Shown: in pieces, positions 8,494-49,914 of the stretch | Position numbering within the stretch: the stretch's first letter is position 1 | How the letters are laid out: every line of letters starts with the position of its first letter | From: a virus | DNA length: 64,000 nucleotides | Reading direction: 5' to 3' (one strand) | IMG/VR virus record: IMGVR_UViG_3300035698_012504 | Location: 186,694-250,693 of that record | Notes under the pieces: model-generated | What the model saw: only the letters and a program-made list of their open reading frames with translations | What the model was told of the DNA's origin: nothing | Database searches by the model: none | Position numbers and translations under genes: made by a program

Positions 8494-11321
8494 TATCTAA
8501 CCTCTATCAATATACTATTCCTATCGAAATATACTAGCTCAGGAGTGTATGTGAGTAGCTGTGACTGAGAAAAATCATTTAGCGGATCATACTTAAAAAA
8601 TATATCATGTGAAGGTTTTAATACTTTACAATGATCAACGCCTTCTACTTCTTGTACTACCTTTGTAACATCAGACATATATAGTCCAGTGTCGTAACCA
8701 AATATATTATATAATTTATTAACTAAATTTGTTTTGACAGTTTCTACTACAGCGTAATCAGTATATGGTTTAGATCTATCTATCCATATAACTATATGAA
8801 GTTGGATAGGTATTTCCTGTAAAGGATCTTCAAATGTTTCTCCATTAAATATATATTTCTGAATTATATTTCCTGAGAGGTTTCCTAAATCTTGATCAAC
8901 TACTAAATTAAATTGATCATTAACAATTAATCTTTCATACACCCATCCACCAAATCCGCTACTAGCAGTAGAGTCATACTCTGCAATAAATCCATCAGAT
9001 GTTCCATCTGTATTAGTCGGATATCCCCATGGATTAACATCTGGTGCCTCACTCACAGCATATCTATCTCCATTCACAGGAACAATAGGAAGGGTATCTG
9101 GATTTATTCCTATGACTGGTTCTCTTGTTGGAGGATTGAGATACATATTATCTAGTTGACCTGTAGTATTACTAAATTTAAGATTTATAAAATCTGTTAA
9201 CATCTTATAATTGGCAACATCAAATGTCATTATTTTTTGATATACAAATAACTCAAAGTTATCTTGATCTACGTTGTCATAGTATAATTTTTTAATAACA
9301 GGAACATTATATATTACTACATTCTCATTCCCTTCTGTTCCACTTATATCTACATTACTTAACATAAACTCAGATAGATTGCTATGGATAGTTATGGTTG
9401 CTTCGGATTTATTTATACTTCCGAATTGTTCCCATGTACCATATGTAGGATTCTGGACCCACTTCTTAGATATTAAATCAGTAGGAGTCACAAGTGTTTC
9501 ATCAACAACCTCATAAGTAGAAAAGAAAAACTGTACGTTGTCTTCTGGTATATCTGATAAAGAGAACACGTATTTAAATTTAAACACAGGTTCGGAATCG
9601 TTATGTGAATATTGTGAAGTCATATATAATTCTTCGCCCGACCAACTAGGAACAACTAAACATCTAATTGTTGTAAGATCTATAAGACTTAATACATCTA
9701 TATCAGTAGCATCATGTTGATAAGGACTGTATATGTTCTTCAATGGATAGTAATTAAAATAAACCTCTATCTTTGGATCAGTTGAATCAGATTTATCTAA
9801 AGTAAAAGTAGCGCCCTCGGGTTGTATTATAGATTCTGTATTATCACTTCTTCCTAGAACGAGTGATTTTGTAATATCATCAAGTAAATATTTATATATG
9901 GCTGTTTCTTGATCTATATCTATACTTATATTAAACATACTTACATATTCTTCTCCACCAATACTAAACACGTCTCCAGTAAATACATCTAGTGCTTCTG
10001 CGCTGGTAGTATCAATTGATAATGATTCATTTCTAGTTGGAACCAGGGCCTTCTCAAAGATAAGATCTGTGAAAAGAGATATCTCATTACACTGAATGTC
10101 ACTTCGCTTGAGGACATGGATAACATTATTGATAGGTAGATCGCTTATTATTTTCTTAGCATTCTTATAGTCTTGATTAGATACTAGTCTTTTGTTTGAT
10201 GATACTCTTGCAATAGCGTTCGCTCTTATTTCATCAATAGATAATTCATCTCTTCCCCCCATAGCAGGGATAGTATTTATACATGAATATTGTAAGTACC
10301 TAGTAACTGGAGCATTATTAATTGTATCTACTACAGCAAATCTATCTCCAGTTTTGATAGAACCAGCAACTACATTTCCTGATTCTCCCTGTGTCAATGA
10401 ATATGATATTTTTGCAAGGTATCCTGAAGTCGGTTGAACTCCAATTATACCATTACCAAAGAATAATTTTAACCCCGAATTTTGATTCGTGTTTGTCATC
10501 CTATATACAAACCCTCTATAATTATTTGGGATCATAAATAAAGAGTTTCCTTTTATAGGAGAATCTGGGTCATCTGGTCCTCCCCATGTATATCTAATTT
10601 TATTAGCATCAGTCGCAGTGGTCTGCTTCTCTTCCGTTACCAATCTTACACGATGTAATTGTCCAGGTTTACCAAATTTAATTTCGTGTGTAAGGAACTC
10701 ATATGGTTTTAATGTTGGGATAGTAAACTCCTCAACAGGATCTATCTCTTCTATTTGAATTGTATTGATAAGAAAAATAAGTTTACCATCTCTAATATTA
10801 GATGGGATTATTTTTGTCCCGCCACTCTCAAGACTCTCAGTAACTATAGCTGTTTGTAATTCAGAATATATTGTAGCAGTCACTGAATTTTTTGTAGTAA
10901 ATACTGTTTCAAGACCAGCATAGAATTTAAATGGTTCTGGATCTTCTATGTCTTTTCTTAGTCCATGAAAGACTAACTGGGTTACGGGTTGTGTAAATAC
11001 AATAGGTACTTCCATCATTATGGGAACTTCTGCAGGAAGGGGTGGAGCATCAGATGTAGGATTATATCCTAGCATTGTTGCCAAGTTCAATACAGATTCT
11101 TTTTGAATTGCTCTCGTTAAAAAGAATTCTCTATATACACTTGTATTATAATACATTAAGTTAGTTGTAAGAATAGAAAGCATGTTAATAATATATGATA
11201 AATAAGATGCCTTAGAAAAATCTAAGTTTTCTAGTTCGAGATAATCTCTACTGTATTCTAATAACTGTTCTCTAATTCTATCTCTGCTCGAGTAAATTTG
11301 AATATTTCTATCGTTAAACAC
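8493..11321 (-). CDS. Large baseplate wedge protein, gp6/J-like (putative)
   Basis: 942-aa ORF positioned 3' of a gp25-like gene, as in myovirus baseplate modules. There is no diagnostic motif, so the call rests on size and position only. Confidence 0.35.
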   Translation of the reverse strand: MFNDRNIQIYSSRDRIREQLLEYSRDYLELENLDFSKASYLSYIINMLSILTTNLMYYNTSVYREFFLTRAIQKESVLNLATMLGYNPTSDAPPLPAEVPIMMEVPIVFTQPVTQLVFHGLRKDIEDPEPFKFYAGLETVFTTKNSVTATIYSELQTAIVTESLESGGTKIIPSNIRDGKLIFLINTIQIEEIDPVEEFTIPTLKPYEFLTHEIKFGKPGQLHRVRLVTEEKQTTATDANKIRYTWGGPDDPDSPIKGNSLFMIPNNYRGFVYRMTNTNQNSGLKLFFGNGIIGVQPTSGYLAKISYSLTQGESGNVVAGSIKTGDRFAVVDTINNAPVTRYLQYSCINTIPAMGGRDELSIDEIRANAIARVSSNKRLVSNQDYKNAKKIISDLPINNVIHVLKRSDIQCNEISLFTDLIFEKALVPTRNESLSIDTTSAEALDVFTGDVFSIGGEEYVSMFNISIDIDQETAIYKYLLDDITKSLVLGRSDNTESIIQPEGATFTLDKSDSTDPKIEVYFNYYPLKNIYSPYQHDATDIDVLSLIDLTTIRCLVVPSWSGEELYMTSQYSHNDSEPVFKFKYVFSLSDIPEDNVQFFFSTYEVVDETLVTPTDLISKKWVQNPTYGTWEQFGSINKSEATITIHSNLSEFMLSNVDISGTEGNENVVIYNVPVIKKLYYDNVDQDNFELFVYQKIMTFDVANYKMLTDFINLKFSNTTGQLDNMYLNPPTREPVIGINPDTLPIVPVNGDRYAVSEAPDVNPWGYPTNTDGTSDGFIAEYDSTASSGFGGWVYERLIVNDQFNLVVDQDLGNLSGNIIQKYIFNGETFEDPLQEIPIQLHIVIWIDRSKPYTDYAVVETVKTNLVNKLYNIFGYDTGLYMSDVTKVVQEVEGVDHCKVLKPSHDIFFKYDPLNDFSQSQLLTYTPELVYFDRNSILIEVR

Positions 11322-12201
11322 AGGTTTGTACCTCCAATCCCTCTAAGAATTTTTTAAATTCTTCTTTATTATATTTTGCATTCTTCCTCAAATTTTCTTT
11401 AGCTGGAAGAAATTGTAAATTGCTTTCATGATTTATTAATTTTAAATCATAAATATTATTATCTGTAAATGCCTTTATAGGAAAAATATGATCAACATGA
11501 ATATTTGGATTATTAATATTATTCTTTTTTCTGAGTTTTCTCTTATAACTATTACTTAAACTTTGTAGTTCTAGAACTATTCTTATTTTTTTCCTATCTG
11601 GATTCCACATATATGAATTTGATCCAGACAATGCCTCTATTTTACACCTTCTACATTTAACACCATTTAATAAACTACTAAGTGATATTTTAGTAGGATT
11701 TCCACATGAACATAATGAATCTACAGAATCATTATATCGTACATATTTCCCAATTAATTTAAATCCTCTTTCTTCAAACAATTTAAACACTTCTTCCTGT
11801 GTATATTTAACATTCCCTGAACAATTCATACATCTCCGACCAGCCTTAAATGATTTAAGTTGTGTTTTAGATATATTTCCACATGAACAACGGTATCTTA
11901 ATGTTTTTGCATTGTTACCGTCATATATGTCTAACAATTCACAACCACTATCTATAAACGTATTCTCCACCTCTTCTTGAGACAATCTCAGCTTCGACCC
12001 TACGTTTCTATAATGACATTTTTTACATCTTTTTTCGTTATGTATAAATGAGCTTACTTGTATAATAGATTCGTTCCCACATGGGCAAATATATTTTACT
12101 TTAGATCTTGATGTAATACTATCGGAATATTCTTCTAATAATACACCACCTCTTTTTTCAAATTCTTCTTTTATCTTATAGTAACCTAGGCATTTACCCA
12201 T
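11314..12201 (-). CDS. HNH endonuclease with 3 tandem Zn-ribbon (C-x-C-G-N ... R-C-x-x-C) modules; probably a free-standing homing endonuclease
   Basis: Repeats read Y.C.CGN.S...F..G.RC..C. The C-terminus has HVDHIFPIKAF...NLQFLPAKEN, an HNH motif. Confidence 0.75.
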   Translation of the reverse strand: MGKCLGYYKIKEEFEKRGGVLLEEYSDSITSRSKVKYICPCGNESIIQVSSFIHNEKRCKKCHYRNVGSKLRLSQEEVENTFIDSGCELLDIYDGNNAKTLRYRCSCGNISKTQLKSFKAGRRCMNCSGNVKYTQEEVFKLFEERGFKLIGKYVRYNDSVDSLCSCGNPTKISLSSLLNGVKCRRCKIEALSGSNSYMWNPDRKKIRIVLELQSLSNSYKRKLRKKNNINNPNIHVDHIFPIKAFTDNNIYDLKLINHESNLQFLPAKENLRKNAKYNKEEFKKFLEGLEVQTCV

Positions 12202-12206: not shown

Positions 12207-12680
12207 TTATCCACTCTTAGAAAAATCTGGAGCGTGCTTCGCCACGCGTGTCACGACAGCATCTTTGGCCTTTTCTATCTGAGCCCTACCTTTTTCTTTA
12301 ACTATTTGGAGCATTGATCTTTTTGATTTTAATAAAGCTGCTAGCTCTTTGTCTTTTGCTTTTAATGTCGTTCTCAAATTACTCATCTCAGTTCTTTTAA
12401 TCTTTGCAGCTATGATCTTTCTTCTCTTAATTAAATTTCTTATAGCTATAGATATCCTATTCCATATTACCTTTAATCCTCTAGACATATCTTTAGCTAG
12501 ATTCGCCTTCCCTTCATCTAACATTTCATCCCTATGTAGATTAATATATTGTTCTTCTAATCTTTTTTCTAAACTATCTAGCTGTTCATAATTGAGATGT
12601 TCTAAAAAAGAATCGAAGTCATTCGTATCAATTCTCTCTGACTCTAAAAAAATAAGAAAGCTTTCTGATAAATTGTTCAT
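12207..12680 (-). CDS. Hypothetical coiled-coil protein
   Basis: 157-aa charged helical ORF. Confidence 0.4.
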   Translation of the reverse strand: MNNLSESFLIFLESERIDTNDFDSFLEHLNYEQLDSLEKRLEEQYINLHRDEMLDEGKANLAKDMSRGLKVIWNRISIAIRNLIKRRKIIAAKIKRTEMSNLRTTLKAKDKELAALLKSKRSMLQIVKEKGRAQIEKAKDAVVTRVAKHAPDFSKSG

Positions 12681-12683: not shown

Positions 12684-13352
12684 TTAATCCTCTATAAAAT
12701 AAAATCCAGATGTGTTATCAAATAAACTATTAAGTCGTGTAGACATAGAAGCTGATCTCTCTTGTAATCTTAATAAGAAATTAGCATTCTCTAACGGCAA
12801 AATAGTCTTAGTAAACTCTAGAAATTTCCAATGTGTAGACACTTGTAGTTCTAAATCCCTCACTGCGTGCGGAGCACCTTTTAATTGACACTGATATATA
12901 TTATAAAAATCTCCGAAGTGTGCCAAGTTAACATTAGTAACAACCATCAATCTTTCATTTACTGACTCAGTTTTTATTCCAAAACTAATATCTACGAAGT
13001 CCCCTTCTGCTGGTTTTAATCCATATACAGAAGGGATTGCTAATTGTGTACTAATAGATGCTCCGAATCTTAATCCTTTTTCCTCAGAGTCTCCTGTTGG
13101 TTGAACTTGTTCTAATCCAAATACAGGTAACAATGATATTTTTATCCACTGTTGTCCAGATAGTTCGCCCACTCCTAGCTTCTCATATGAACCACCTAAT
13201 AAATTTTCATTCTCCCATACAGTTTCATCGTGATCTGTAGCATAATATGTTACTGGAAACGCTGGGTATTCTTTTATATAATGTTCATAAGCTGTTTCAA
13301 AGTAATCACTTATATAATTATATCTTCTTAACCAAGGTTGTACTGTAGACAT
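12684..13352 (-). CDS. Hypothetical baseplate-module protein
   Basis: 222-aa ORF immediately downstream of the gp25-like gene. Confidence 0.4.
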   Translation of the reverse strand: MSTVQPWLRRYNYISDYFETAYEHYIKEYPAFPVTYYATDHDETVWENENLLGGSYEKLGVGELSGQQWIKISLLPVFGLEQVQPTGDSEEKGLRFGASISTQLAIPSVYGLKPAEGDFVDISFGIKTESVNERLMVVTNVNLAHFGDFYNIYQCQLKGAPHAVRDLELQVSTHWKFLEFTKTILPLENANFLLRLQERSASMSTRLNSLFDNTSGFYFIED

Positions 13353-13353: not shown

Positions 13354-13782
13354 TTATTTCTCCATTGTAGTAAGTAGAGTCTCGTCTACATCAATAGAAA
13401 CTCGTTTAGACTCACCCTTATATGATATTAAAAAATTAACTCGGAAGCCTTTCTTATTACTGAAGTATTTAACTGAGTATGTTATAGTGGCAAGGTGTTT
13501 ATAATATGCAATAGCATCATCTATCTCCATCCTTGCTCTCATGTTTGTCTCAGTATCAGATGGTTCGAATATTAATTTATATAAATCGGATCCAAATTCT
13601 GGATCAAATGGGTACGTCCTTCTAGCAGTTAATAGAGTATTCTTTATTCCCTGCACCACTACATCTACCCCAGATAGCTCCCTAAAATCACCTGTCTTTG
13701 TAATAGTAGAGTGGACATCTATAGGTCCATCTCTGCGACCAGGTATTATTTTTAAAAAATCACTTGTAGTTATATTATTCAT
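13354..13782 (-). CDS. Baseplate wedge protein, gp25/GpW-like
   Basis: The stretch IKNTLLTARRTYPFDPEFGSDLYKLIFEP matches the GpW/gp25 family signature (I..LL.T..GER...P.FG..L..L.FEP). Confidence 0.6.
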   Translation of the reverse strand: MNNITTSDFLKIIPGRRDGPIDVHSTITKTGDFRELSGVDVVVQGIKNTLLTARRTYPFDPEFGSDLYKLIFEPSDTETNMRARMEIDDAIAYYKHLATITYSVKYFSNKKGFRVNFLISYKGESKRVSIDVDETLLTTMEK

Positions 13783-14553
13783 TTATACTTTTTCCTCAAC
13801 GTAATTTTTAAACTGAGTTGAATTATATTTTCCCTGTTTGCTTAGATTTTCCTTAGCTGATAATAGTTGTAAATTATCTAATGAATTAATAACTTTAGGA
13901 TCGGTAATTCCATTTTCAACAAATGCTTTTACTGGAATAATATGATCAACGTGATAATGATACGAATCCTCTTTCCAAGCGTCAAACAAAGGATCTTTCC
14001 TTAAATGGTTTAAAAGATCTTCTCCAGAATATCCAAGTAATTTATATGTTTTAGTATTTTTTAACTGACCTGTAGATTTTAAACTATGTCTTATTAACGA
14101 TTTTGATAAACTTCTTACTCTTTCTTTTAATTTTATATACTCTCTATCAATAATCCAATTATGATTTTTTCGACCTGACTTTATTATTGATCTATATTTA
14201 TTTGCACACTTCATACATCTTTTTCCATTTTTAAAATTCGAAAAAGATATTTTAGATATGTTTCCACATTTACATATATATTTAACAGGATCGTGAGATT
14301 TTTTATATATTCCTAATAACTCGCAGTTATTATCTCTAAAATATTGAGATACATACTTTTGTGAATATTTAGGAGTTCCGGAACATTTCATACATCTGCA
14401 TCCTTGCCTAAATTTATCAAAATTTATATATGATATATTACCACAAGAACATTTATATTTCATCTTAGTTTTAGCATTCTTATAAAAAGATAGTAATTTA
14501 CAATCATTATCTTTAAAATACTTTTCTATATATTCCTGAGAATGTTTCTTCAT
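13783..14553 (-). CDS. HNH endonuclease with 2 tandem Zn-ribbon modules
   Basis: Two KYKCSCGNIS...RCMKC modules. The C-terminus has HVDHIIPVKAF...NLQLLSAKEN. Confidence 0.75.
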   Translation of the reverse strand: MKKHSQEYIEKYFKDNDCKLLSFYKNAKTKMKYKCSCGNISYINFDKFRQGCRCMKCSGTPKYSQKYVSQYFRDNNCELLGIYKKSHDPVKYICKCGNISKISFSNFKNGKRCMKCANKYRSIIKSGRKNHNWIIDREYIKLKERVRSLSKSLIRHSLKSTGQLKNTKTYKLLGYSGEDLLNHLRKDPLFDAWKEDSYHYHVDHIIPVKAFVENGITDPKVINSLDNLQLLSAKENLSKQGKYNSTQFKNYVEEKV

Positions 14554-14640: not shown

Positions 14641-14889
14641 TTTTTAGGGAAATGATTAATAAAAAAATAGAGGGTAAAAATACCCTCTATTTCCTTCTAT
14701 TTCTTTCGGCGTGTGGACTCTTCCATCTTCTTACGCTTCTCTTCTTCTAGGTCAAATTTCCATTTAATGGTATCAATAAAGAATTTATATGGCATAATCA
14801 TTATATCAGTATAATCTTGCTTCATAAGCTCCATCATAGATCTAATATTTTCTTCTAAATTCTTTTGAAATCTTTCAGATTCTTCTTGA

Positions 14890-16047
14890 TTAGACGAGTG
14901 CGACCATTCGAAAAAATTGACTTGATATTTCCACTCCCAGATCGTTTTCTGAACCACACTGTGTGCAGTTCCAAACAGCCTTAAGGTCAATACCATACTG
15001 ACCAAACTCATCTCTGAATTTTTCAATGAGTTTAATCTGATCTCTAGGTGGGAGACTTCTATACGCCATTATAATTTCTTGTCTTTCAGTAACACTGATC
15101 ATAGGGATAGTTTGACCTGGAGCATATTGATCAAATCTTTCAATGATTAATGTTTCATAAATGATATCAATCTGTGCTCTCTGAGAAAAAGGAACACTAC
15201 TCATCATTTGTTCTTCATCATGTAGAGTTGGTTGTCTTAGCGTAACAACTACATTGGATACTGGTAGTTCAAACTGAACTTTCTTTAATAGTATATCTGA
15301 ACCAAGATCCATAGTTCTAGCGAGATCTAATTCAGTAGGCTCCTGGTTTCTAACTACTGGCTCTTCAGATACTTCTGGTGCCTCCTGAAGACCCCTGAGT
15401 GACCCAGGAGTGACATCGATGTTAGATTCAGGCAAACCAGGTGGTTGAGATAGCGTAAGAGGCTTAGAAGGCTCTACAGGAGGTTCGGGAAGATCGAGCG
15501 GTTGTGTAGTTTCCTTTCCAGCATTCTTCTGTTTAATGGCTTCTTCCATTACATCATCTGGTTCAACATCATTTGATTGAGAAAGTTTATAACTTTCCTG
15601 TAAACCGTCACTACCAGGATACGAATTCATATTAAACATCTGTGAAATATTTACTTTAATGTCTTGCTTATTAGCACACTGTTTACATGTAACATTAAAA
15701 TCTGTTTCGTTTCCAAATGTGGAATGATATAATCCATATAATAGTGCGTCTCTATCTCTTACAGTAACTTGCTTTTTAAATGAATCATAGTCCTTTACTT
15801 CCGGTGGACTATTTTCTAATGCATCAAATATACATTTATTAATTGACTCTGTAGCTTTCGTTGGGGTCGTGGCTGAGTTCTTCAGCTTTGAAACCTCTGA
15901 AACATTCAAGCTCCTAACATCATAAGCCGTTCCTGTTTGTGGGGTTACAACAGAATATGTTGGGTACTTAAATTTAAATCCTCTGAATGGGGTACTCATA
16001 TTACACTCTCTCCTATTTTTCTTTTGTCTTGGCGCAGTTTGCACCAC
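14890..16047 (-). CDS. Hypothetical structural protein. The true start may be the internal Met MSTPFRG. A 109-aa ORF at 14697..15026 in another frame overlaps its 3' end.
   Basis: 385-aa ORF lying between the 272-aa structural gene and the HNH/gp25 module. Confidence 0.45.
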   Translation of the reverse strand: MVQTAPRQKKNRRECNMSTPFRGFKFKYPTYSVVTPQTGTAYDVRSLNVSEVSKLKNSATTPTKATESINKCIFDALENSPPEVKDYDSFKKQVTVRDRDALLYGLYHSTFGNETDFNVTCKQCANKQDIKVNISQMFNMNSYPGSDGLQESYKLSQSNDVEPDDVMEEAIKQKNAGKETTQPLDLPEPPVEPSKPLTLSQPPGLPESNIDVTPGSLRGLQEAPEVSEEPVVRNQEPTELDLARTMDLGSDILLKKVQFELPVSNVVVTLRQPTLHDEEQMMSSVPFSQRAQIDIIYETLIIERFDQYAPGQTIPMISVTERQEIIMAYRSLPPRDQIKLIEKFRDEFGQYGIDLKAVWNCTQCGSENDLGVEISSQFFRMVALV

Positions 16048-18053: not shown

Positions 18054-18130
18054 GCCCCAATAGCTCAGCTGGATAGAGCGACGGCCCTCTAAGCCGTAGG
18101 CCGCAGGTTCGAGCCCTGCTTGGGGTGCCA
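18054..18130 (+). tRNA. tRNA-Arg (anticodon TCT)
   Basis: Cloverleaf: acceptor gccccaa/ttggggt, D arm tagctcagctggatagagc, anticodon arm acggc-cctctaa-gccgt, T arm gcaggttcgagccctgc, CCA encoded. Confidence 0.8.
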
Positions 18131-18162
18131 TTTTTTTCGAAGAACAAACGAAGGAGGATATC

Positions 18163-18621
18163 GTGCAGGTAATTAAAGTAGGAACGTTCGTTCGATATTT
18201 CGACGCTGAACGAGGCGTCATAATTCATGGACAAGTGGATGGATTCCAAACAGTTGGTAAGATCAATGTTGTTCCCTTTGATGGAACAGACGATCAAGTT
18301 GCAATTGAGGATACTCAAATTGTATGCTTCTCCAACGAAACGGGAGTCTGTCCCACCAGAGATGGATCGTATATCCCATATTCCTTTTTCGCAAAAAATA
18401 AATATCCTTTGGCCGCAAAGGCAGCATTAAGAGGAATCGTAGAACCGCTTCGGGAAGAAGAACCTATCGACGATGAACCACATGATCATTCGGGGATCGC
18501 TGAGGGAGATGGGGTAGGTGTCGAAGATGTAGTAGTCCAGCCCAAGAAGAAGGTAATCACTACGCTGGATACGGATGCGATCCTTCACAGGAAGGGACGA
18601 TTCGGTAGAAGTTACATGTGA
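18163..18621 (+). CDS. Hypothetical protein
   Basis: 152-aa ORF between two tRNA genes with an RBS-like GAAGGAGGA. Confidence 0.4.
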   Translation: MQVIKVGTFVRYFDAERGVIIHGQVDGFQTVGKINVVPFDGTDDQVAIEDTQIVCFSNETGVCPTRDGSYIPYSFFAKNKYPLAAKAALRGIVEPLREEEPIDDEPHDHSGIAEGDGVGVEDVVVQPKKKVITTLDTDAILHRKGRFGRSYM

Positions 18622-18630
18622 GTGAAGCAT

Positions 18631-18707
18631 GGGCGGATAGCTCAGTTGGTTAGAGCGCGACACTGATAATGTCGAGGTCGAAGGTTCAATTCCTTCTCCG
18701 CCCACCA
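18631..18707 (+). tRNA. tRNA-Ile (anticodon GAT)
   Basis: gggcgga/tccgccc acceptor, tagctcagttggttagagc D arm, cgaca-ctgataa-tgtcg anticodon arm, gaaggttcaattccttc T arm, CCA. Confidence 0.85.
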
Positions 18708-18907
18708 TTTTTAAGAGATGAAGGATATGCTCGATACGTTCTTGTAAATAATGAAAGACATTGGGAACTTATACCTAAGGCAGAACTAACACCAGAGAAA
18801 CCAGTACCGATCCTACCTACTGGATACTGGTGTTGGATATCGGAAGACGGAAAGATTATTTATACTGAGAGAGATCAGTGGGATAAAACCCCTAACCTGG
18901 AGGAAAT

Positions 18908-19471
18908 ATGGAAGTCACTGGCTATACCATAAGAGAAGCATTAAAGTATTGGAATTTAAAATTAGAAGCATTGAGTGAACAGTTCCCAACAACAATCTTT
19001 GGATTTGAAGGCGACGAGGAAGCAGATCCAAGCGATTTATTTGTAGAAATAGTTGAGGCAGAATCAGCAATTGTAAGATTACAAACATTACAACAAAAGT
19101 ATAACCTTAGTATTGAGGTTATTATTAAAGATACTAATCAACATCGCTCTGTTATGCCATTGGCAACAGCCATAAAAATAGCTGGGTATATGGGGAGATT
19201 TGAAAAACTATGGAAAACTTCCATGTCTACTTCTAAGGGTAGAGGCATGTTTGGAGAACGATTTGGGGGAGGCGGTGCCGAGACCAGGAAGGTAGACGAC
19301 ATGGTAGCCAAACGGAGAATCTCAATCGTGGCATGTAGAAATAATTCATTAAGCTTTTCTAAACTTGCAAGTGCCTGTAGATCTGTTATTGCAGAAGCAA
19401 ATGGTACCGCTGTAACTCTCGGAGAGGGAGAGTTCGTAGGTTTTGACGACTCATTGTTCAGTGTCCTCTAG
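18908..19471 (+). CDS. Hypothetical protein
   Basis: 187-aa ORF. Confidence 0.4.
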   Translation: MEVTGYTIREALKYWNLKLEALSEQFPTTIFGFEGDEEADPSDLFVEIVEAESAIVRLQTLQQKYNLSIEVIIKDTNQHRSVMPLATAIKIAGYMGRFEKLWKTSMSTSKGRGMFGERFGGGGAETRKVDDMVAKRRISIVACRNNSLSFSKLASACRSVIAEANGTAVTLGEGEFVGFDDSLFSVL

Positions 19472-19735
19472 GATTACTGGATGATGACGAGTCCGCTGAG
19501 ACGTTGAAAACCTCCTTGGTCAAAGGAATATACCTCCACTGGTCATCCGTATCACCGATGCTCACAAACCAGCCCGCATGATTCTTGAAGAGCGGAACTT
19601 AACTGGTACCAATAAAAGGTGTAGACGAGACCAATTCCTAGCTCATTGCTGTTCAACGTCTCAGCAACTTTTTTAATTCGTCTGTAAAATGTATGTATAT
19701 AGAAGGGATTTAGATTTTGAAAAAAAGGAGAAAGA

Positions 19736-20971
19736 ATGTTTAAGAAGATTATGTCGTTGGTATTAGTTTCGTTCATGGTAATCAGTTTAACTGCTGCAGC
19801 ACAATCATATGATTACTCACATAGAAAATCATCTGCTACCATCGAGGTAACAGATTTGAGTGGTAATGCTGCGCCCGGCGTGAGTGTAGAAGTCACACAG
19901 ACCGGTCACGAGTTCCTATTTGGTATGGGTCCAGGAGTATTCTATAAACCAGAACTCCTGGATAAAGTTGATGATGTCTTCAACAATGCTACACTCGGGT
20001 TGTATTGGTCTAGCTTAGAAAGCCCACAAGGTACCTATAAGTTTCCAACACTTCAGATCCAGGTAGATTGGTGCAAGACAAGAGGGTGGCCTATGAAAGG
20101 ACATCCAATTCTTTATACTATAGCACAACCAACATGGGGCGCTACGCCAGAAGCACAAATAGAACATATTAATAAACTATTAAATGAATATGCAGATGAC
20201 TTTATGTTCTGGGATACGGTGAACGAACCTATTAATAATCCTGGAATAGATATAGGATCTGTTCATTCTTATATAAGAACATTACCATACAATGACTTGA
20301 AGATAGGAATTAATGAATATGGAATCCTTGGTGGTTGGTTGAATCTTGCTACTATACTGAAAGGTGTTGGAAGCCAATTTGACTATGACTATGTAGGAAT
20401 TCAGTCTCATATTCCAGACGATAAAGAATATGATATTAATTATATAAAATCAAAGATAGAAGAATTTAATGATCTTGGAAAACCTATTCACATTAGTGAA
20501 GTATCTGTTCAGTCCGCTGGTGGAATTTGGAATGAAACCAATCAAGCAGACTATGCAGAGAAATTATATAGATTGTATTTCTCAATACCCTCAGTAGAAG
20601 TTATTACCTGGTGGAGCATTCCAGATGGAGATCCTTGGAAACCTACGATTGGATTATTCAGAACGAATGGTACATCGAAGCCAGCATTCGATAGATTGAA
20701 AAATCTTATTACAAATGAATGGTATACTAAATTAACAGTTGAATCTAATAGTGAAGGTAAAGTAATATTTAATGGGTTCCGTGGCAATTATAAAATATTG
20801 GTAGAAGACGTAGAGGTTCCGCTTACTTTAGATAAGAGTAATCCTACTGTTACAGTCGCGGTTGCTGTTGAAGTAGTTGAACCAGAACCCGATCCTGAAC
20901 CGGATCCGGAACCAGTTCCAGAACCAAAACCAAGGAAAAGATGGTGGAAATTCTGGAGATGGGGTAGATAG
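19736..20971 (+). CDS. Secreted glycoside hydrolase (clan GH-A, GH5/GH26-like) with Pro-Glu repeat linker and Trp/Arg-rich C-terminal tail
   Basis: N-terminal signal peptide MFKKIMSLVLVSFMVISLTAAAQS. VNEP catalytic acid/base motif and ISEVSV nucleophile motif. C-terminus EPEPDPEPDPEPVPEPKPRKRWWKFWRWGR. Confidence 0.6.
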   Translation: MFKKIMSLVLVSFMVISLTAAAQSYDYSHRKSSATIEVTDLSGNAAPGVSVEVTQTGHEFLFGMGPGVFYKPELLDKVDDVFNNATLGLYWSSLESPQGTYKFPTLQIQVDWCKTRGWPMKGHPILYTIAQPTWGATPEAQIEHINKLLNEYADDFMFWDTVNEPINNPGIDIGSVHSYIRTLPYNDLKIGINEYGILGGWLNLATILKGVGSQFDYDYVGIQSHIPDDKEYDINYIKSKIEEFNDLGKPIHISEVSVQSAGGIWNETNQADYAEKLYRLYFSIPSVEVITWWSIPDGDPWKPTIGLFRTNGTSKPAFDRLKNLITNEWYTKLTVESNSEGKVIFNGFRGNYKILVEDVEVPLTLDKSNPTVTVAVAVEVVEPEPDPEPDPEPVPEPKPRKRWWKFWRWGR

Positions 20972-20975
20972 ATAG

Positions 20976-21347
20976 ATGGAATACTTTACCATGGGAAGTG
21001 ATCATGTTTATCCATTGGGGGAAAAATTCGTAGTGGATTACTATATCTCTGGTACTTGTTCCACTGGCAAAGCCTATAGGCTCCTTGAGACATTAATTAA
21101 TACATTGACGTTCGTTAGAACATATGACCGGAGTTATAAACGACAACAATTAATTTTATTAAAGACATGGCACGACAGAATATGGAATGCTATTGAGTTA
21201 GGATATATTGATAATAAGACTGATGACGATTTAAGAATATTTCTTCCTTCTGAAATGCATCCCAAGAGGGATAAAAAAGTTCGAATGGATTTTCTAAGGG
21301 ATCAGTTACACCGACTGATCTCTGAAAACGCAGGGCTTATAATTTAG
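20976..21347 (+). CDS. Hypothetical protein
   Basis: 123-aa ORF. Confidence 0.35.
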   Translation: MEYFTMGSDHVYPLGEKFVVDYYISGTCSTGKAYRLLETLINTLTFVRTYDRSYKRQQLILLKTWHDRIWNAIELGYIDNKTDDDLRIFLPSEMHPKRDKKVRMDFLRDQLHRLISENAGLII

Positions 21348-21355
21348 GAGGAAAG

Positions 21356-21490: not shown

Positions 21491-21594
21491 AGGAGATTAA
21501 TGCAGTATTGTATTGGTTGTGGATTACCAATTCGCGAAGGATTTGTGAATTGTATAAAATGTAAAATAAAAGAAACTAATGAGGAGAAAGTGGA

Positions 21595-21978: not shown

Positions 21979-22000
21979 AGGAACTTAATGTTTTTGTTTT

Positions 22001-22134: not shown

Positions 22135-22192
22135 AAACAATTTATTTAAATAATATATTAAAAGAATTTAAAATTCTTTTATATTAAAAATT

Positions 22193-22208: not shown

Positions 22209-22211
22209 AGA

Positions 22212-25713: not shown

Positions 25714-25718
25714 CTAAA

Positions 25719-36394: not shown

Positions 36395-37298
36395 AAGGGA
36401 TTTAAATGGACGAGGATACTGCATTAGAAATATGTAACTTCTGTGGCAAAGAAGAATATTGTACTCATACTACTGACCCATATATGTATGAAGTATTTGG
36501 AGATACTAGAGTGGATTGGTGGTGTGGTAATTGTTTATATGAACGATCAAAAAAAATAGGGTTAGCATAATATGGATGATTGTGAAGAAAGAATAGCTAA
36601 GTTATTAGATGCATTAGAAAGAATAACTACCTTCGGACATACAGAGGGTTGTAATTGTCAATGCGCCCCAGTATATGAATGTGGCTGCTATGAGGAAGAT
36701 CAAGCAGACATAGCAAGAAAAGCATTAGAGGAGTATGGATACGAATGAGTGATTTAAATTCTTTAAAAGAAAAAGCTGAATTAATTATTGCAAGAATGAC
36801 AAGCAATATAGGATTACTAGAAATGCAAATGGATGAATTAAAAGAAGTTATGATATTAATCCAAAAGAGAGATGTCGATGAAGACATTCATATCACCAAC
36901 GGAAATGTTTAAGGAGGAATAATGTCGGATGATAATAAGTATTCTGCGTACACGGCCTTCGCAGCAATGGGAGAATATATAGCATATGCAATAGTTATCT
37001 CTGTGCTTATTGGCTCCTGTGCATTTATAAATGTGAATCGTGACAATCAGAGACACGAATTAAAGAAATTAGAAATACAGATGGAACAGCAGGAGAAACC
37101 TCAGTAAGGGAGGATATATGTTAGCGACCTGGCCTTTCTCTGTTATCGAAACCCTTATTGGGGATATCCTCATAAGATTCATCAAGAAAATAAGAGACAC
37201 TTACTTCGAAATATATAAAGCAATCTATGTAGCCATCCTGGAAAATATTTTGACACCAGAAGAGTTGGAACAAAAGATGAAAATGTAATTCGATTTCT

Positions 37299-37383
37299 AG
37301 GAGGAGTAGCGTAATTGGTAACGCAGCGGTCTTGAAAACCGCCGCCTTCGGGCTTGGGGGTTCGAGTCCCTCCTCCTCCGCCA
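37299..37383 (+). tRNA. tRNA-Ser (anticodon TGA), type II
   Basis: ggaggag/ctcctcc acceptor, tagcgtaattggtaacgc D arm, gcggt-cttgaaa-accgc, 14-nt variable arm, gggggttcgagtccctc T arm, discriminator G, CCA. Confidence 0.8.
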
Positions 37384-44609: not shown

Positions 44610-45563
44610 ATGCATAGAAATCCCGATCCTGATTCATTAGGTGCAGCCATATGTATGAAGTTTATATTATCAAATAAATTTGGGATTCATCCAACTATAT
44701 TTTTAGAAGGTGAGGTTAGTCATTTACAAAATCAAACGATGGTTAATATATTATCAATTCCTCTCATCAAGGTAGAAGAATATAAAAAAGATGAATTCGA
44801 TTTTGTAATAATTTTAGATACTACAACAAAGAATTCATTTCCAGATGAGTCAATTTTAACAATAGATCACCATAGGTCTGGAGATAGTAACGCGGCCAAT
44901 TCTCAAATAGAAGAAATAGGATCGACTTGTACTTTCATGTGGGAACATATGAAAGCTCTCAATTTAATAGAATTGGATGAAGATCAATCAATAAGAACTG
45001 CCCTAGTTTGTGGTATAGTTACAGATACTAATTTTCTAATCGAGCCTACTGTAACCAATAGAGATCAGGCAGCATATCAAGAACTAGTTCAAAATGTAGA
45101 TAAGAAAAAGTTAGATACTTTTCTCAATTATCCACTCCCTACTTATTACTTTGATCTTGAACGAAAAGTATTTGAGCCAGATAATTTTATAGAAGATGAT
45201 ACGTTTTTTATTGGTGGGACGGGGATTATTAGTGATGCCAGGCGGGATGTGATTCCTATGATTGCGGATAGGCTTCTTCGGAAACAAGGAATCGACACGG
45301 TATTCATATTTGGAATAATAGGAACCAGTCTTGTCTTTAGTGTTAGAAGTAAAAATTCATCGTTAGATGTTAATACATTCTGCCAGAAGGCCACCAACAC
45401 AAAGGCGAGTGGTGGAGGAAAACAAGGAATGGGTGGAGGTAGGATTTCATTGGCGGGTATTTATGAAACAACTTATCCAGATGAGCTGAAGGCTCACTTC
45501 TGGACATACGTCAAAGGAAGTATGTTTCATAGAGTTTCTAGCCTCCTATCAGGCGAACTATAA
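44610..45563 (+). CDS. DHH/DHHA1-family phosphoesterase (NrnA-like nanoRNase / pAp phosphatase fold)
   Basis: MHRNPDPDSLGAA (motif I), ILDTTTKN, TIDHHRSGD (DHH motif), C-terminal GGGK...G motif of DHHA1. The true N-terminus may lie upstream: the frame is open back to the TAG at 44526. Confidence 0.65.
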   Translation: MHRNPDPDSLGAAICMKFILSNKFGIHPTIFLEGEVSHLQNQTMVNILSIPLIKVEEYKKDEFDFVIILDTTTKNSFPDESILTIDHHRSGDSNAANSQIEEIGSTCTFMWEHMKALNLIELDEDQSIRTALVCGIVTDTNFLIEPTVTNRDQAAYQELVQNVDKKKLDTFLNYPLPTYYFDLERKVFEPDNFIEDDTFFIGGTGIISDARRDVIPMIADRLLRKQGIDTVFIFGIIGTSLVFSVRSKNSSLDVNTFCQKATNTKASGGGKQGMGGGRISLAGIYETTYPDELKAHFWTYVKGSMFHRVSSLLSGEL

Positions 45564-45631: not shown

Positions 45632-47350
45632 TTATACAACGAAGAAGTTCAGGTGAATTTGTTCAACAACCCTTGTCGGATTGAGAGTAATATTCGCTTG
45701 GATTCTCTTCGCTTTAATGTCATACTCAGATGCACCAACAGTAACACCAAATGAATATAATCCTCTTCTGTCTTGAACTGTCTTCAAGAAAGCAGAGATG
45801 TTATTGCTAATTGCACCCCAGGTTGCGGTATCGTTTAATTCAAATATATAGAATCTGCAGAACTGTTCTAGAGCACGCTTAATATAAAGAATCAATCTCA
45901 TAATATTAAGATCCTGTAGTGCAGTTGGTCTTACCTGTGAAGTAAGTTGTCCATAAACTGTGAATCCTACATTAAATTTAACAATTGGGTTAATCTGTTT
46001 CAGGTAGAATTGATCTCTCTGAGACAGGTTCGGGCTGAATCTTAGTTCTTGAATCTGAGCAATTGTCGCTCTGTTAAATCCAGCTGGAGCATACCAAAGT
46101 TCTGCAATGTTATCCGTGTAAGGAATTATATTTGCCATGTGGTATACAGGAGTCATCCAAAGATAACGTCCAGTAAACTTATCAAATATTTTTGAATATG
46201 GTTCATATATCGCAGCGTATCTAGTATTAATACCGTAGGTATCACCTCCAGATTCTGATCTAGAATCGTATGCTGCTTGATAGTTAACGTTGTCGCCATT
46301 ATCAATTATAGCAATACAATCCTGTCTTAGATCGCGGGTTAATTCTACAATGTTTCTCTTGACATTTGTGCTGTATCCACCGTCAAACACTATATTAAAA
46401 TAGTGGTCTTCTGTATCAATAACAGATTCTAATGCTTGACCCGTTAATGGGTTTGTAATGTCACCAGTGTATGCTAATGATAATATTGAATCACCAACAG
46501 TTGTAGTTACTGCTCCGTTTGCATCAAATAGAGATCCAGTTGATCCGTTCTCTAGATTAAGTGCGCCATCTAGGAATGGTATATCAAACTCACAAGATCC
46601 TTCTACTGCTGCTAAGCAGGCTACTTCATCTGCAATACAATTTAAATGTCTACTATATCTATTAACAATATCTTCGATCCACATGGACTCACCGTCGTCG
46701 TCAAGTCTTGTGCTTAAGAAAGATACCATATAGGTTTCAATTATCTCAAATTGATCAGCGCCTGTATCTGGATTTACATCGTTTTGTTTTTCATATACAT
46801 CCATTACATAAATGTCTGGTTTATCAGTTTGGACAGTTGTATTTGCTGGTTTTGTTATTTCAACTCTAAACCTATCATACCAATCACCACGACCAACTCC
46901 ATAAAACACACAGCATGTATCTTCTGAGCCTGTCTCATAAGTATTAGTAAGTAGTGTTGATAGTTCGTTTAATGTATTAACTCCTGCTTCAGATGTGGCG
47001 ACTGCGGATGCTGTACCATCAGCGCCGTACTCACCAGCTCTTTCAGCCATTAATATCAAGTTTGAATATGCAGCGTCTGTCGGAAGACATCTAACTACAT
47101 ATAGGGAATCAGATTGTTTCAAGAACGAATCTGCTACATACGGTCCTTGACCGAATGCCTTTTTCGCATAGGTGATATCTGGTCTACCGAAGTCTAGATA
47201 AAAGTCTCTAGCATTAGTGAAGATCAGTTGATTATCCGGACCATGCTCGGAAATGATGCAAATGAAACCAATGGTTGATGGTACATTTTGCACGAATTCA
47301 GACAGGTCTATAATCTTAGTATATACACCTGGAGAAATATGTTGTGCCAT
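45632..47350 (-). CDS. Contractile tail sheath protein
   Basis: The N-terminus MAQHISPGVYTKIIDLSEF...GFICIISEHGP...FGRP matches the conserved sheath N-terminus (SPGV..E.D.S......G...G.F.GP). 572 aa. Confidence 0.85.
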   Translation of the reverse strand: MAQHISPGVYTKIIDLSEFVQNVPSTIGFICIISEHGPDNQLIFTNARDFYLDFGRPDITYAKKAFGQGPYVADSFLKQSDSLYVVRCLPTDAAYSNLILMAERAGEYGADGTASAVATSEAGVNTLNELSTLLTNTYETGSEDTCCVFYGVGRGDWYDRFRVEITKPANTTVQTDKPDIYVMDVYEKQNDVNPDTGADQFEIIETYMVSFLSTRLDDDGESMWIEDIVNRYSRHLNCIADEVACLAAVEGSCEFDIPFLDGALNLENGSTGSLFDANGAVTTTVGDSILSLAYTGDITNPLTGQALESVIDTEDHYFNIVFDGGYSTNVKRNIVELTRDLRQDCIAIIDNGDNVNYQAAYDSRSESGGDTYGINTRYAAIYEPYSKIFDKFTGRYLWMTPVYHMANIIPYTDNIAELWYAPAGFNRATIAQIQELRFSPNLSQRDQFYLKQINPIVKFNVGFTVYGQLTSQVRPTALQDLNIMRLILYIKRALEQFCRFYIFELNDTATWGAISNNISAFLKTVQDRRGLYSFGVTVGASEYDIKAKRIQANITLNPTRVVEQIHLNFFVV

Positions 47351-47416
47351 AATAGTTTCCTCCTAAAATTTATTAGTTACTTATTATTAAATCACGAAAA
47401 TAAAGAGGTCATCTTT

Positions 47417-47431
47417 ACAATTTGTCCTCAA
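47417..47431 (-). promoter_or_regulatory. Promoter-like motif (GGACAAA core) upstream of the tail sheath gene
   Basis: acaatttgtcctcaa. Confidence 0.4.
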
Positions 47432-47464
47432 AAAAATGGGCCATCAAAAAAAGGAGAAAATCGG

Positions 47465-47731
47465 TTGAAAGTCTTAAGTAAAACGGCCAGTGGTGGAGCA
47501 ATTATTGAAGGTACTAAAGAGGAATTAATACTTTTATTAGGCGATCTTGAAGTCAATGATGGTCAAAATTTTGATCTAAGTAAACTAATAGACGATATAG
47601 CTACAGTTAGATGGCTTCGTACTGAAGGGATATTTGTTGCAAACTGCTTGACCGAGATGGCAAATCGTACAAGAAAAATTGAGAGTGTTGTTCCGAAGGA
47701 AAAGAAAGAGGCGGTCCCAGTGGCACCATAA
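47465..47731 (+). CDS. Hypothetical protein (TTG start)
   Basis: Track ORF 47288..47731 overlaps the sheath start. The TTG at 47465 is preceded by AAAGGAGAAAA. Confidence 0.3.
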   Translation: MKVLSKTASGGAIIEGTKEELILLLGDLEVNDGQNFDLSKLIDDIATVRWLRTEGIFVANCLTEMANRTRKIESVVPKEKKEAVPVAP

Positions 47732-47745
47732 CACATGGAGATGAT

Positions 47746-48465
47746 ATGAAAATACCCCATCAAAACCTCCATCTACATTCATATTCCATGGAGAGTGCAA
47801 AACGTCATATAGTTGGGGTAGCACTAGAAGCAAAAGAAAAAAAGATAATTACTTCTCCTAGAATGTCTTTTACCAACCATAACTTTATGTTGGATCCAGA
47901 ATTTATGACCAGTTTCTCTAGTAGATATGATATAGATTATGTTCCTGGTTTTGGATTTAAAACAAAAGAAGGAATTGAATTAAATGTTTATAATCCTGGG
48001 GATGAGTCTCTAGAGTTCTTAAATAAGTTATCTGCTGAAAAAGAATTCTGGTTATTGCTATTGATGGAAAAATTAGACGAACTAGGATATCCTATAGATC
48101 CGACTAAAGTATTAGAGTTAGTTAAAAAATCGGAATTAAAATTATTAGAAATCTGTGATATATGTAAATACTATGTAGAAGATGAATACACAGAGATCGA
48201 TACTGAAACTGAATGTTTAATTAAATTAGTACGTCCAGTGTTGGCATCCGGACTAGTTCCTATGTTGAGATTTCCTTTTGAGAAGTCTGTAGACGAATTA
48301 GCCGATTGCGAAGTATCGCTTGTAAACCCGAACGAGTTCCCAGAGTTGGTAGGCCACATAAGTATATCCAGCGTTATCTTCTGTGAGGAGACGCGAGGAG
48401 AAATAATAGAGAGCTGTACAGACAAAGGAACTCAATTGTGGTATGGGAATGGGGATTGGATATAA
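47746..48465 (+). CDS. Hypothetical protein
   Basis: 239-aa ORF. Confidence 0.4.
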   Translation: MKIPHQNLHLHSYSMESAKRHIVGVALEAKEKKIITSPRMSFTNHNFMLDPEFMTSFSSRYDIDYVPGFGFKTKEGIELNVYNPGDESLEFLNKLSAEKEFWLLLLMEKLDELGYPIDPTKVLELVKKSELKLLEICDICKYYVEDEYTEIDTETECLIKLVRPVLASGLVPMLRFPFEKSVDELADCEVSLVNPNEFPELVGHISISSVIFCEETRGEIIESCTDKGTQLWYGNGDWI

Positions 48466-48470
48466 ATAAG

Positions 48471-48516
48471 GCGGGAAGGCTAAACACCTTCCCGCCCGTT
48501 TCACTTTAATTTTTTG
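48471..48516. terminator. Hairpin terminator between convergent genes
   Basis: gcgggaagg-ctaaaca-ccttcccgc followed by ccgtttcactttaatttttt. Confidence 0.5.
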
Positions 48517-48651
48517 TTAAGAATTTATATTATTAGACTCGATATAAAATTGGAATTCTTTTTCATTCATTATCTTCAAAATACTTCCTAACATATTTGT
48601 ATGTGTGTTTCTTACTCATATTTTTAATTCCTAATATACCACATTATATCT

Positions 48652-49914
48652 CTAATCAAATACTATAAACTGTTCTATGTATTCCATGAAGTCATCTTCA
48701 TCATAATACCCATTTTTACTCATATTTTCTCTACCGGGAAGAGGCCGTAAATTTCTTTCATCATTGATTATATCTAAATCAAATATCCCATTTTCCACGA
48801 ATGCTTTTACTGGTATTATATGATCTATATGTATGTTTTTCAATGTTATATTATATTTTTTTCTGTAGTTATTTTTATATGTTGCGCTTAATTGATGAAT
48901 ATCTCTTATATTTCTAACAGCATTTCTATCAGGGTTCCAGTTATAATGGTTAGCCCCCGATATTTTTTCTGCTACTTTTTCATATCCACACTTCATACAT
49001 CTATGTCCTTGATTAAAACTACCAAATGTTACTTCTGAAATATTCCCACAACTGCATTTATATTTCATTTTAGTAACTATATTAGTATATTCATCTTCTA
49101 ATAAAATACAATCACGATCTGAAAAGTATTGTTTCACATATTCAAACGAGTGTTTTAGTTTTTCAGATCTCTTTTCATTACCACAATTATTACATCTTTG
49201 ACCTTGTTGAAAGTGGCTAAATGTTATTTCTGAAGTATTACCACACGAACATATATATTTCATTTTAGTGTTTGCATTTACATATTCATCTTCTAATAAA
49301 ATGCAGACATGGTCTTTAAAATAACTTTCAACATATTCATAGGTGAGTTTTTCATTACCACCGCATTCTCCACATCTATGTCCATGTTTAAAACTGCCAA
49401 ATGTTATTTCTGAAATATTCCCACAACTGCATTTATATTTCATTTTAGTATGATTATCAACATAATCTTTTTCTAATAATTCACAACCATTATCTTCAAA
49501 ATATTGATTTGTATATTCGAATGTATGTTTTTGTTTTTCGCCCGCTCTTTTAGATCCACACTTCATACACCTGTGCCCATATTGAAATCTGTTAAAAGTT
49601 ATTTCTGCAGAGTTACCACAAGAACATATATATTCCATATTAGTATGATTATTAATATATTCTGTTTCTAATAACCCACAACCATTATCTTCAAAATATT
49701 GCTTTACATATTTATGGGTGAGTTTTTCTCTACCACCACACTTTGCGCAACGTTTTCCTTGTTGAAAATCATTATATTTTATCTCTGAGATATTACCACA
49801 TGAACATTGATATTTCATTTTGGCGTGCGCCCTAACATACTCTTCCTCCAACAGCTCACACCCCTGTTGCTCGAAATATTCCTTTACAAATTCATAGGTT
49901 AATTTCTTAGACAT
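48652..49914 (-). CDS. HNH endonuclease with 5 tandem ~60-aa Zn-ribbon modules
   Basis: Five repeats of YV..YFE..GC.LLE.EY.N...KMKY.CSCGN.SEI.F..F..G.RC..CG. C-terminal HIDHIIPVKAF...NLRPLPGRENMSKN. Confidence 0.8.
   Translation of the reverse strand: MSKKLTYEFVKEYFEQQGCELLEEEYVRAHAKMKYQCSCGNISEIKYNDFQQGKRCAKCGGREKLTHKYVKQYFEDNGCGLLETEYINNHTNMEYICSCGNSAEITFNRFQYGHRCMKCGSKRAGEKQKHTFEYTNQYFEDNGCELLEKDYVDNHTKMKYKCSCGNISEITFGSFKHGHRCGECGGNEKLTYEYVESYFKDHVCILLEDEYVNANTKMKYICSCGNTSEITFSHFQQGQRCNNCGNEKRSEKLKHSFEYVKQYFSDRDCILLEDEYTNIVTKMKYKCSCGNISEVTFGSFNQGHRCMKCGYEKVAEKISGANHYNWNPDRNAVRNIRDIHQLSATYKNNYRKKYNITLKNIHIDHIIPVKAFVENGIFDLDIINDERNLRPLPGRENMSKNGYYDEDDFMEYIEQFIVFD
48690..49900. repeat. Five tandem ~180-nt DNA repeats (the Zn-ribbon module repeats inside the HNH gene)
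   Basis: Recurrent ...ccacaactgcatttatatttcattttagt... / ...ttccacacgaacatatatatttcattttagt... units. Confidence 0.6.

Follow-up and report, generated by a model that had tools for sequence, protein, structure and literature searches.

Three genes in a 64,000-nucleotide stretch of a viral genome (IMG/VR record IMGVR_UViG_3300035698_012504, positions 186,694 to 250,693) each join an N-terminal array of cysteine-containing modules to a C-terminal HNH-type nuclease domain. We call the whole 64-kb stretch the window and number it from its first letter. The three genes form one paralogous family, free-standing and with a complete HNH-type catalytic motif, and all of them lie in intergenic gaps of the tail and baseplate module. 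They are very probably free-standing homing endonuclease genes (HEGs) of a single paralogous family, placed between genes of the tail and baseplate operons. As such, they are new examples of the known modular phage HEGs with CapR-like arrays. The genes and their parts are as follows:

11314-12201, minus strand: three-module HNH gene, 295 amino acids
about 11635-12201: module array of the three-module gene
about 11317-11634: nuclease domain of the three-module gene, short-linker H-N-N form
13783-14553, minus strand: two-module HNH gene, 256 amino acids
about 14197-14553: module array of the two-module gene
about 13786-14196: nuclease domain of the two-module gene, long-linker (LLGY) H-N-N form
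48652-49914, minus strand: five-module HNH gene, 420 amino acids
about 48979-49914: module array of the five-module gene
about 48655-48978: nuclease domain of the five-module gene, short-linker H-N-N form

A preliminary description of this DNA had reported the three open reading frames (ORFs) with exactly these coordinates and had given them two, three and five copies of a module of 45 to 60 amino acids. The copy numbers stand; the module itself has a period of 59 to 66 amino acids, at or a little beyond the upper limit proposed. All three ORFs are intact and full length. A six-frame search for the pattern C.CG...C..C found 10 modules in the window, all inside the three ORFs and distributed three, two and five. 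A hidden Markov model (HMM) of the module, scanned over six frames of the window, likewise recovered only these ORFs, with the same counts and 77 to 105 bits per module, and Pfam PF21817 marks three, two and five stretches in the three-, two- and five-module genes, respectively. The paralogs share 43 to 48% amino acid identity overall and 50 to 58% in the nuclease core, and their arrays match PHROG 559 (“HNH endonuclease”) and PHROG 681 (“endonuclease”).

Two of the three genes sit in the baseplate cluster, among gp6-like wedge, gp25-like and T4-baseplate hub-like genes, as had been noted earlier, and the five-module gene belongs to the tail region, with the sheath gene on one side and the gene of a giant EF-hand-rich protein on the other. 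The genes that flank them are intact. The three-module gene and the gp6-like wedge gene share 8 nucleotides, at the 3′ end of the former and the start of the latter, and the stop codon of the two-module gene abuts the start codon of the gp25-like gene. The surroundings relevant to the comparison with other phages are:

8493-11321, minus strand: gp6-like baseplate wedge gene, the conserved flank downstream of the three-module gene
12207-12680, minus strand: coiled-coil ORF of 157 amino acids, rich in lysine and glutamate, immediately upstream of the three-module gene
12684-13352, minus strand: conserved baseplate-cluster gene of 222 amino acids, between the two HNH insertions
13354-13782, minus strand: gp25-like baseplate wedge/sheath-initiator gene, the conserved flank downstream of the two-module gene
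14697-14855, minus strand: small conserved gene (...MPYKFFIDTIKWKFDLEEEKRKK...), intact, directly upstream of gp25 in relatives
14890-16047, minus strand: T4-baseplate hub-like gene, the conserved upstream flank
47351-50885: island, about 3.5 kb long, that separates the sheath gene from a gene of 277 amino acids

Relatives at the baseplate sites were contigs encoding homologs (about 50% identity) of the 222-amino-acid protein, and relatives at the third site were found via the sheath protein; a related-locus search of IMG/VR with the 222- and 239-amino-acid flank proteins returned nothing. Four contigs (L011-L014) have the hub gene, the small gene, gp25, a gene of 225 or 227 amino acids and the gp6-like gene, with no HNH gene. 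In the window, the two-module gene stands between the small gene and gp25, both of them intact. Since these two are neighbors in the relatives, the two-module gene was inserted between them without disrupting either. The three-module gene, together with the 157-amino-acid ORF, lies between the 222-amino-acid gene and the gp6-like gene. Another contig (L015) carries two two-module family members at other junctions, one between gp25 and the 227-amino-acid gene and one between that gene and the gp6-like gene. At the third site, the ortholog of the 277-amino-acid gene lies 120 to 160 nucleotides upstream of the sheath gene in L021-L023, where the window has the 3.5-kb island. In this comparison with endonuclease-free relatives, of the kind proposed in the preliminary description, each of the three junctions is without its HNH gene (L011-L014 and L021-L023). 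The earlier homing-endonuclease call is supported by this presence and absence at all three sites among related phages.

Two further features of these loci deserve mention. The 157-amino-acid ORF matches nothing in Pfam, PHROG or PADLOC, and it may belong to the same insertion as the three-module gene because it is missing from the baseplate clusters of every relative examined; it may be part or cargo of that insertion, or a remnant. In L020, a gap of about 940 nucleotides (about 5740-6680) separates the 277-amino-acid ortholog from the sheath gene and may be another insertion, outside the HNH-array family.

The location among structural genes, common to all three, could also point to an accessory role in building the virion or packaging its DNA, as with the HNH protein HK97 gp74, a stimulator of terminase. 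HNH proteins linked to packaging have been described (PMC10448857), and in Sporosarcina phage Lietuvens an array homolog has the large terminase gene on one side and the portal gene on the other. However, no terminase gene adjoins any of the three genes in the window, the paralogs differ in module number, and clustering close to structural and essential genes is a known habit of HEGs (PMC10448857). Moreover, the three HNH genes are missing from related phages that have these baseplate and tail genes, and are thus not needed for assembly. On context and on absence from relatives, we rejected the packaging role, which we regard as scarcely credible.

A frameshifted family member adds to the case for homing endonuclease genes. 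A two-module paralog, 74% identical in nucleotide sequence to the five-module gene, is frameshifted and identical in three independent JGI metagenomes (L004, positions 1753-2440, and also L005 and L006). The frame break falls between the array and the HNH domain and splits the gene into ORFs of 167 and 75 amino acids; either this copy is decaying or the break marks a site of recoding. Positions 1-183 of L004 hold the 3′ end of a further member of the family. Taken together, presence and absence, alternative junctions and the frameshifted paralog make up the classic signature of free-standing HEGs. An intron-encoded HEG was ruled out, as Rfam finds no group I or group II intron in the window.

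The C-terminal domain is a putative beta-beta-alpha-metal nuclease of a cysteine-less H-N-N subtype of HNH. We base the HNH assignment on invariant catalytic positions, a strand-strand-helix core in the structural model and a profile match to BrxU DUF1524. The motif given in the preliminary description, H[IV]DHI[IF]P[IV]KAF...N...EN, was found in all three genes, which share it in the fuller form H[IV]DHI[IF]P[IV]KAF...NL..L...EN..K. In the 256-amino-acid protein, D203, H204, N227 and N236 vary little or not at all among 18 two-module homologs, and the D/H/N/N/K set is invariant in an alignment of 23 domain sequences. The AlphaFold2 model (predicted local distance difference test score, 90.9) has the beta-beta-alpha core, i.e., strand-strand-helix, and the domain profile matches the BrxU DUF1524 HNH exactly over HxDHIxP...NLQ.L...N..K (E value, 0.01). 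The H-N-N subtype is abundant, with 38,787 cluster representatives in metagenomes at an E value of at most 1e-3.

The region before the core comes in two forms. The long LLGY linker occurs in 56 of 61 family members, including the 256-amino-acid gene, and the short form in the remaining 5, including the other two genes of the window; the short form is without about 35 residues of the helical region that precedes the core. Reading the LLGY linker as a Fis/NtrC-type helix-turn-helix (PDB 2m8g) was not significant (E value, 0.18). A phmmer search of PDB sequences with the 420-amino-acid protein gave no match, and the NCBIfam scan gave nothing meaningful. PADLOC gives only HEC-05 matches that cover the HNH motif alone and reach no more than 21 bits, and we rejected a role as a defense-system component.

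It could be argued that the genes are decaying or inactive remnants that kept their arrays and lost cutting. All Pfam HNH models fall below threshold on these domains (16.0 bits for HNH, with a cutoff of 21.4, and 14.6 bits for HNH_4, with a cutoff of 22), a close paralog is frameshifted, and the rare short linker occurs in two of the three genes. However, the ORFs of the window are full length, each with D-H, N and N/K intact, and these positions do not vary within the family. Not decay but membership of a divergent subfamily outside current models, with tens of thousands of cluster representatives, explains the low Pfam scores. Altogether, we find the remnant explanation very improbable, and nuclease cleavage at specific target sites is what we predict for the three proteins.

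The modules show a recurring layout. An N-terminal helix-like half (Y..YF...GC.LL) is followed by Y.C.CGN.S.I.F..F..G.RC..C, so that each module has its cysteines in the order CxC-(17-18)-CxxC, plus an invariant fifth cysteine in GC.LL. Over about 60 amino acids, this gives one helix, a beta-hairpin with the CxC knuckle, a short helix and the CxxC knuckle. In the model, the CxC knuckle is in the turn of the beta-hairpin, and the CxxC follows the short helix and begins helix H114-126 in the last module, an arrangement that, as modeled, appears to resemble a treble clef more. The term Zn-ribbon in the preliminary description was probably imprecise, as the unit of helix, beta-hairpin and knuckle appears to be of the CapR-like/DUF4379 (treble-clef-like) type.

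The name of the module needs some care. PF21817, the “CapR homology domain,” totals 62.8 bits in the five-module gene, 29.5 in the three-module gene and 22.8 in the two-module gene, against a cutoff of 24.2, with about 10 to 12 bits from each module. DUF4379 matches the window modules weakly, and PF21817 has no match in the Lietuvens and L015 proteins that bear the same module type. We checked ICP1 gp174 and gp165 directly and found that PF21817 is centered there on an N-terminal CxxC-(25)-CxC repeat. The window modules do not have the CapR-type arrangement CxxC-(24-26)-CxC, and HHalign gives a probability of 0.8% between them and the ICP1 CxxC...CxC repeats, i.e., the two are not detectably related. 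In contrast, HHalign gives 91.5% (E value, 8.6e-7) between the window modules and the module beside T5orf172 in gp165 and gp174. This match needed profile-profile comparison, as the module HMM derived from the window failed to detect the two ICP1 proteins. Because the modules match the T5orf172-adjacent module and not the core CapR-type repeat, the accurate label, on these profile comparisons, would be a CapR-like/DUF4379-like NUMOD, neither core CapR nor a plain zinc ribbon. The arrays are 30 to 39% identical to GenBank phage HNH, Vsr and homing endonucleases.

Experimental work on related domains gives an idea of what the modules may do. CapR is a PLE satellite repressor of ICP1 capsid genes; its cysteine mutants no longer bind DNA, and the T5orf172 homing endonucleases of ICP1 contain related domains (PMC8096241). 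In CasPRs, CapR domains, sometimes two per protein, are needed for site-specific silencing of cas genes (2026 preprint, bioRxiv 10.64898/2026.02.23.707548). By analogy, the evidence supports placing the window modules in a superfamily whose members, such as PLE CapR and the CasPRs, are required for sequence-specific DNA binding, and zinc binding and DNA binding are predicted for the window modules.

The same literature suggests a different role, in which the three proteins are domesticated DNA-binding effectors that repress or restrict a competitor, such as a satellite, a co-infecting phage or a host defense locus, in the manner of PLE CapR, ICP1 Odn and the CasPRs. CapR-type domains do repress ICP1 capsid genes (PLE CapR, PMC8096241) and silence cas genes (CasPRs), HEG-derived nucleases such as Odn were domesticated, and three intact ORFs with conserved catalytic residues are expected under selection. 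However, CapR and the CasPRs are without a nuclease domain, and three diverged paralogs at separate junctions, absence or alternative junctions in relatives and a frameshifted copy form a pattern that is typical of selfish HEGs, in contrast to that of a fixed accessory function. We therefore consider an effector role rather unlikely, while noting that the two roles are compatible and not mutually exclusive, as with the T4 Seg and Mob enzymes. These T4 enzymes also mediate marker exclusion.

Several points weigh against the homing endonuclease reading. The HEG-less relatives are only about 50% identical in protein, too distant for the exact empty sites and target sequences to be deduced, and presence and absence could partly reflect old gain and loss, not current homing. 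The model of a single module has no significant structural neighbor, and DNA binding by the modules therefore rests on distant homology; moreover, the repeat that was mutated in the CapR experiments is the one to which the window module is not detectably akin (HHalign, 0.8%). Homing by the window genes is a prediction, and it would proceed as follows. During co-infection with a HEG-less relative, the array would bind a long, asymmetric site, either at the empty junction or close to it, and the HNH domain would nick or cut near the bound site. Recombinational repair from the HEG-carrying genome would then copy the gene and flanking markers into the recipient. Unequal recombination between stretches of repeated module-coding DNA could change the copy number, and such changes may alter the length or specificity of the target and let paralogs colonize different junctions.

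The five-module gene offers an example of such a change. The preliminary description had reported DNA tandem repeats of about 180 nucleotides in this longest gene, and Tandem Repeats Finder does locate repeats at 48977-49737, with periods of 195 (1.9 copies, 75% matches) and 375 (2.0 copies, 76% matches); the 375-nucleotide repeat is placed at 48997-49737 on the minus strand. Modules 3 and 5 are 66% identical and modules 2 and 4 are 60% identical, which shows a duplicated two-module unit, [m2 m3][m4 m5]. The broader suggestion of ongoing duplication fares less well. The two-module duplication, at 76% nucleotide matches, supports it in the five-module gene, but family-wide module identity averages 44% within a protein and 42% between proteins, and only 6 of 62 proteins contain a module pair that is at least 60% identical (maximum, 78%). 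Judging from these identities, duplication does occur, with the five-module gene as one case, but most modules are old.

How the arrays might read DNA is a further question. Across modules, the scaffold positions are conserved and the intervening positions are highly variable, and arrays of one to five modules are joined to at least five nuclease classes. Recognition in the manner of a zinc-finger array is plausible by analogy and has already been proposed in the literature. A stronger version, which we hold to be speculative and unlikely, is that the CapR-like modules form a modular code in which each unit of about 60 amino acids reads a fixed sub-site, so that the target scales with module number and order. 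If this were true, the two-, three- and five-module paralogs would be natural “programmed” nucleases, retargeted by duplication and shuffling of modules, and the array would be a third programmable protein scaffold beside C2H2 zinc fingers and TALEs.

The architecture is not confined to this genome. Among GenBank phage records, 181 match the array when it is searched by itself, most of them annotated as HNH or homing endonuclease, and 101 have the H-N-N domain; no record in the GenBank phage collection searched has the fusion of CapR-like modules and H-N-N domain at 80% coverage or more. We classified the C-terminal domains of homologs by HMM. The fusion of array and H-N-N domain is present in 62 of the 120 best homologs (one to five modules in 2, 19, 24, 14 and 3 of them) and in 130 of the 150 top H-N-N cluster representatives from metagenomes (18, 60, 38, 8 and 6). 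Among the same 120 best homologs, the array is also found with canonical HNH (26), Vsr-like (13), PF24308-type (10) and T5orf172-like domains. The pairing of the array with an H-N-N HNH domain is thus common in metagenomes yet unnamed and undocumented. Three proteins of 580 to 615 amino acids (P0159, P0191 and P0273) have three modules and the H-N-N domain, then about 260 extra C-terminal residues.

The wider setting of the window is that of an uncultured myovirus, only distantly related to cultured phages. The G+C content is 37%, megablast of 12 kb against GenBank phages gave no match, and the gp6-like protein is 25% identical to that of Flavobacterium phage immuto. The window sequence has an identical match in a Logan contig of 79.6 kb, and a contig of 152.5 kb is given in the protein table. 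The island at the third site contains two plus-strand ORFs (147 and 239 amino acids), the five-module HNH gene, an ORF of 106 amino acids and a GIY-YIG gene. The last of these, two genes upstream of the five-module gene, is a second homing-type nuclease class in the same island. A tblastn search with the 147- and 239-amino-acid ORFs against the loci of four relatives (L020-L023) found no match, and a sigma-70 promoter scan around the five-module gene was uninformative, with 15 sites against 21.6 in shuffled sequences. Additional features of the island and of the rest of the window are:

47288-48465, plus strand: two ORFs of 147 and 239 amino acids, with no family match
48469-48497: GC-rich, bidirectional terminator-like hairpin between the convergent 239-amino-acid gene and five-module HNH gene
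50269-50853, minus strand: LEM-3-like GIY-YIG endonuclease gene (PF22945, 45 bits)
51729-59984, minus strand: EF-hand-rich ORF of 2751 amino acids (PF13499, 96 bits; PF13405, 80 bits; plus DUF2793 and Big_2), possibly a tail fiber or other structural protein rich in calcium motifs
44610-45563, plus strand: DHH/DHHA1 phosphoesterase gene (PF01368, PF02272), adjoining the tail sheath gene
31164-31557, plus strand: full-length tmRNA gene (Rfam RF00023, 102 bits, model positions 1-374 of 374) in a tRNA-rich region; found by Rfam and not reported by ARAGORN over 17500-38000
18054-37383, plus strand: cluster of 10 to 11 tRNA genes (Arg, Ile, Asn, Thr, Gln, Pro, two Met, Cys, Ser)
22001-22134: Rfam tRNA match of 134 nucleotides against a 71-nucleotide model, not called by ARAGORN, which may be an interrupted or atypical tRNA

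Known phage nucleases resemble the window genes in part. The T4 Mob family, I-TevIII and I-HmuI are HNH nucleases, free-standing or carried by introns, with small DNA-binding modules attached (summarized in PMC10448857). HNH HEGs of T4 type occupy sites between conserved phage genes, and relatives differ in whether they have them. Like the window genes, I-HmuI is of the H-N-N type without zinc cysteines. In Mob and I-HmuI, however, the HNH domain is N-terminal and goes with a single zinc finger or a NUMOD/helix-turn-helix, whereas in the window it is C-terminal, and neither the T4-type HNH HEGs nor I-HmuI are known to have a tandem array of cysteine modules of about 60 amino acids. The closest solved relatives of the nuclease core are the GmrSD/BrxU DUF1524-type HNH and the Cas9 HNH domains, which share HxDHIxP...NL...N..K and are without structural zinc; this likeness is limited to the catalytic core of about 60 residues, with marginal scores, and the context and function are wholly different.

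Closer in overall build are the proteins of PHROG 559, which are about 37 to 39% identical to the five-module array and are free-standing between conserved genes, as in the window. ORF4 of Sporosarcina phage Lietuvens (QIG62518.1) has three such modules and a canonical zinc HNH, XUQ15341.1 of Staphylococcus phage St14.GH similarly has a module array and a C-terminal HNH, and the PHROG 559 “HNH endonucleases” of Lactococcus 949-group and Bacillus phages have the same tandem module type with a C-terminal HNH. In all of these, the HNH is the zinc-stabilized CxxC...HH...CxxCH form, in contrast to the cysteine-less H-N-N domain of the window genes. In Bacillus phage SBSphiJ5, the same modules are joined to a Vsr-like domain. 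The H-N-N domain itself is found in the “HNH endonuclease” of vB_KsaM-C1 (UTC26012.1) and a “coil containing protein” of Vibrio phage 1.240.O, about 40 to 45% identical to that of the window. Such proteins of Vibrio, Klebsiella and Salmonella phages have the motif LLGY...WHIDHI.P...NLQPL...N..K and, in place of a CapR-like array, one or two N-terminal zinc ribbons (YFTGKPCKHGH...C..C) and a coiled coil.

The architecture given in the preliminary description is confirmed, but variable-number CapR-like arrays on homing endonucleases have already been published. HEGs in phage group I and II introns combine three to five CapR-like domains of about 60 amino acids with an EDxHD/Vsr nuclease, and their arrays have been interpreted as NUMOD-like specificity modules (PMC12350094, 2025). 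They share with the window genes the same CapR/DUF4379/DUF723-like module, variable N-terminal arrays and a C-terminal nuclease; they differ in that the nuclease is PD-(D/E)xK/Vsr and several are intron-borne, while the window genes are cysteine-less HNH, free-standing and intergenic. T5orf172 HEGs have a variable number of CapR/DUF723/DUF4379 repeats, with copy changes by repeat recombination (Barth et al., PMC10448857, 2023). Those of ICP1 are GIY-YIG-like and share modular zinc-finger repeats and a location beside essential or structural genes, but have another nuclease domain and an additional N-terminal CxxC...(24-26)...CxC repeat that is undetected in the window module.

In view of these systems, the three genes leave the current understanding of HEG elements unchanged, and they add a detail, the pairing of the array with a cysteine-less H-N-N subtype that has no Pfam model above threshold. 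A single genome with two-, three- and five-module paralogs at three tail-module junctions also provides a natural series for relating module number to target length, and the HEG-less junctions of relatives are ready candidate substrates. The case fits the emerging picture in which phage HEGs are built by shuffling a few nuclease domains onto CapR-like arrays that, according to the literature, are altered by changes in repeat number.

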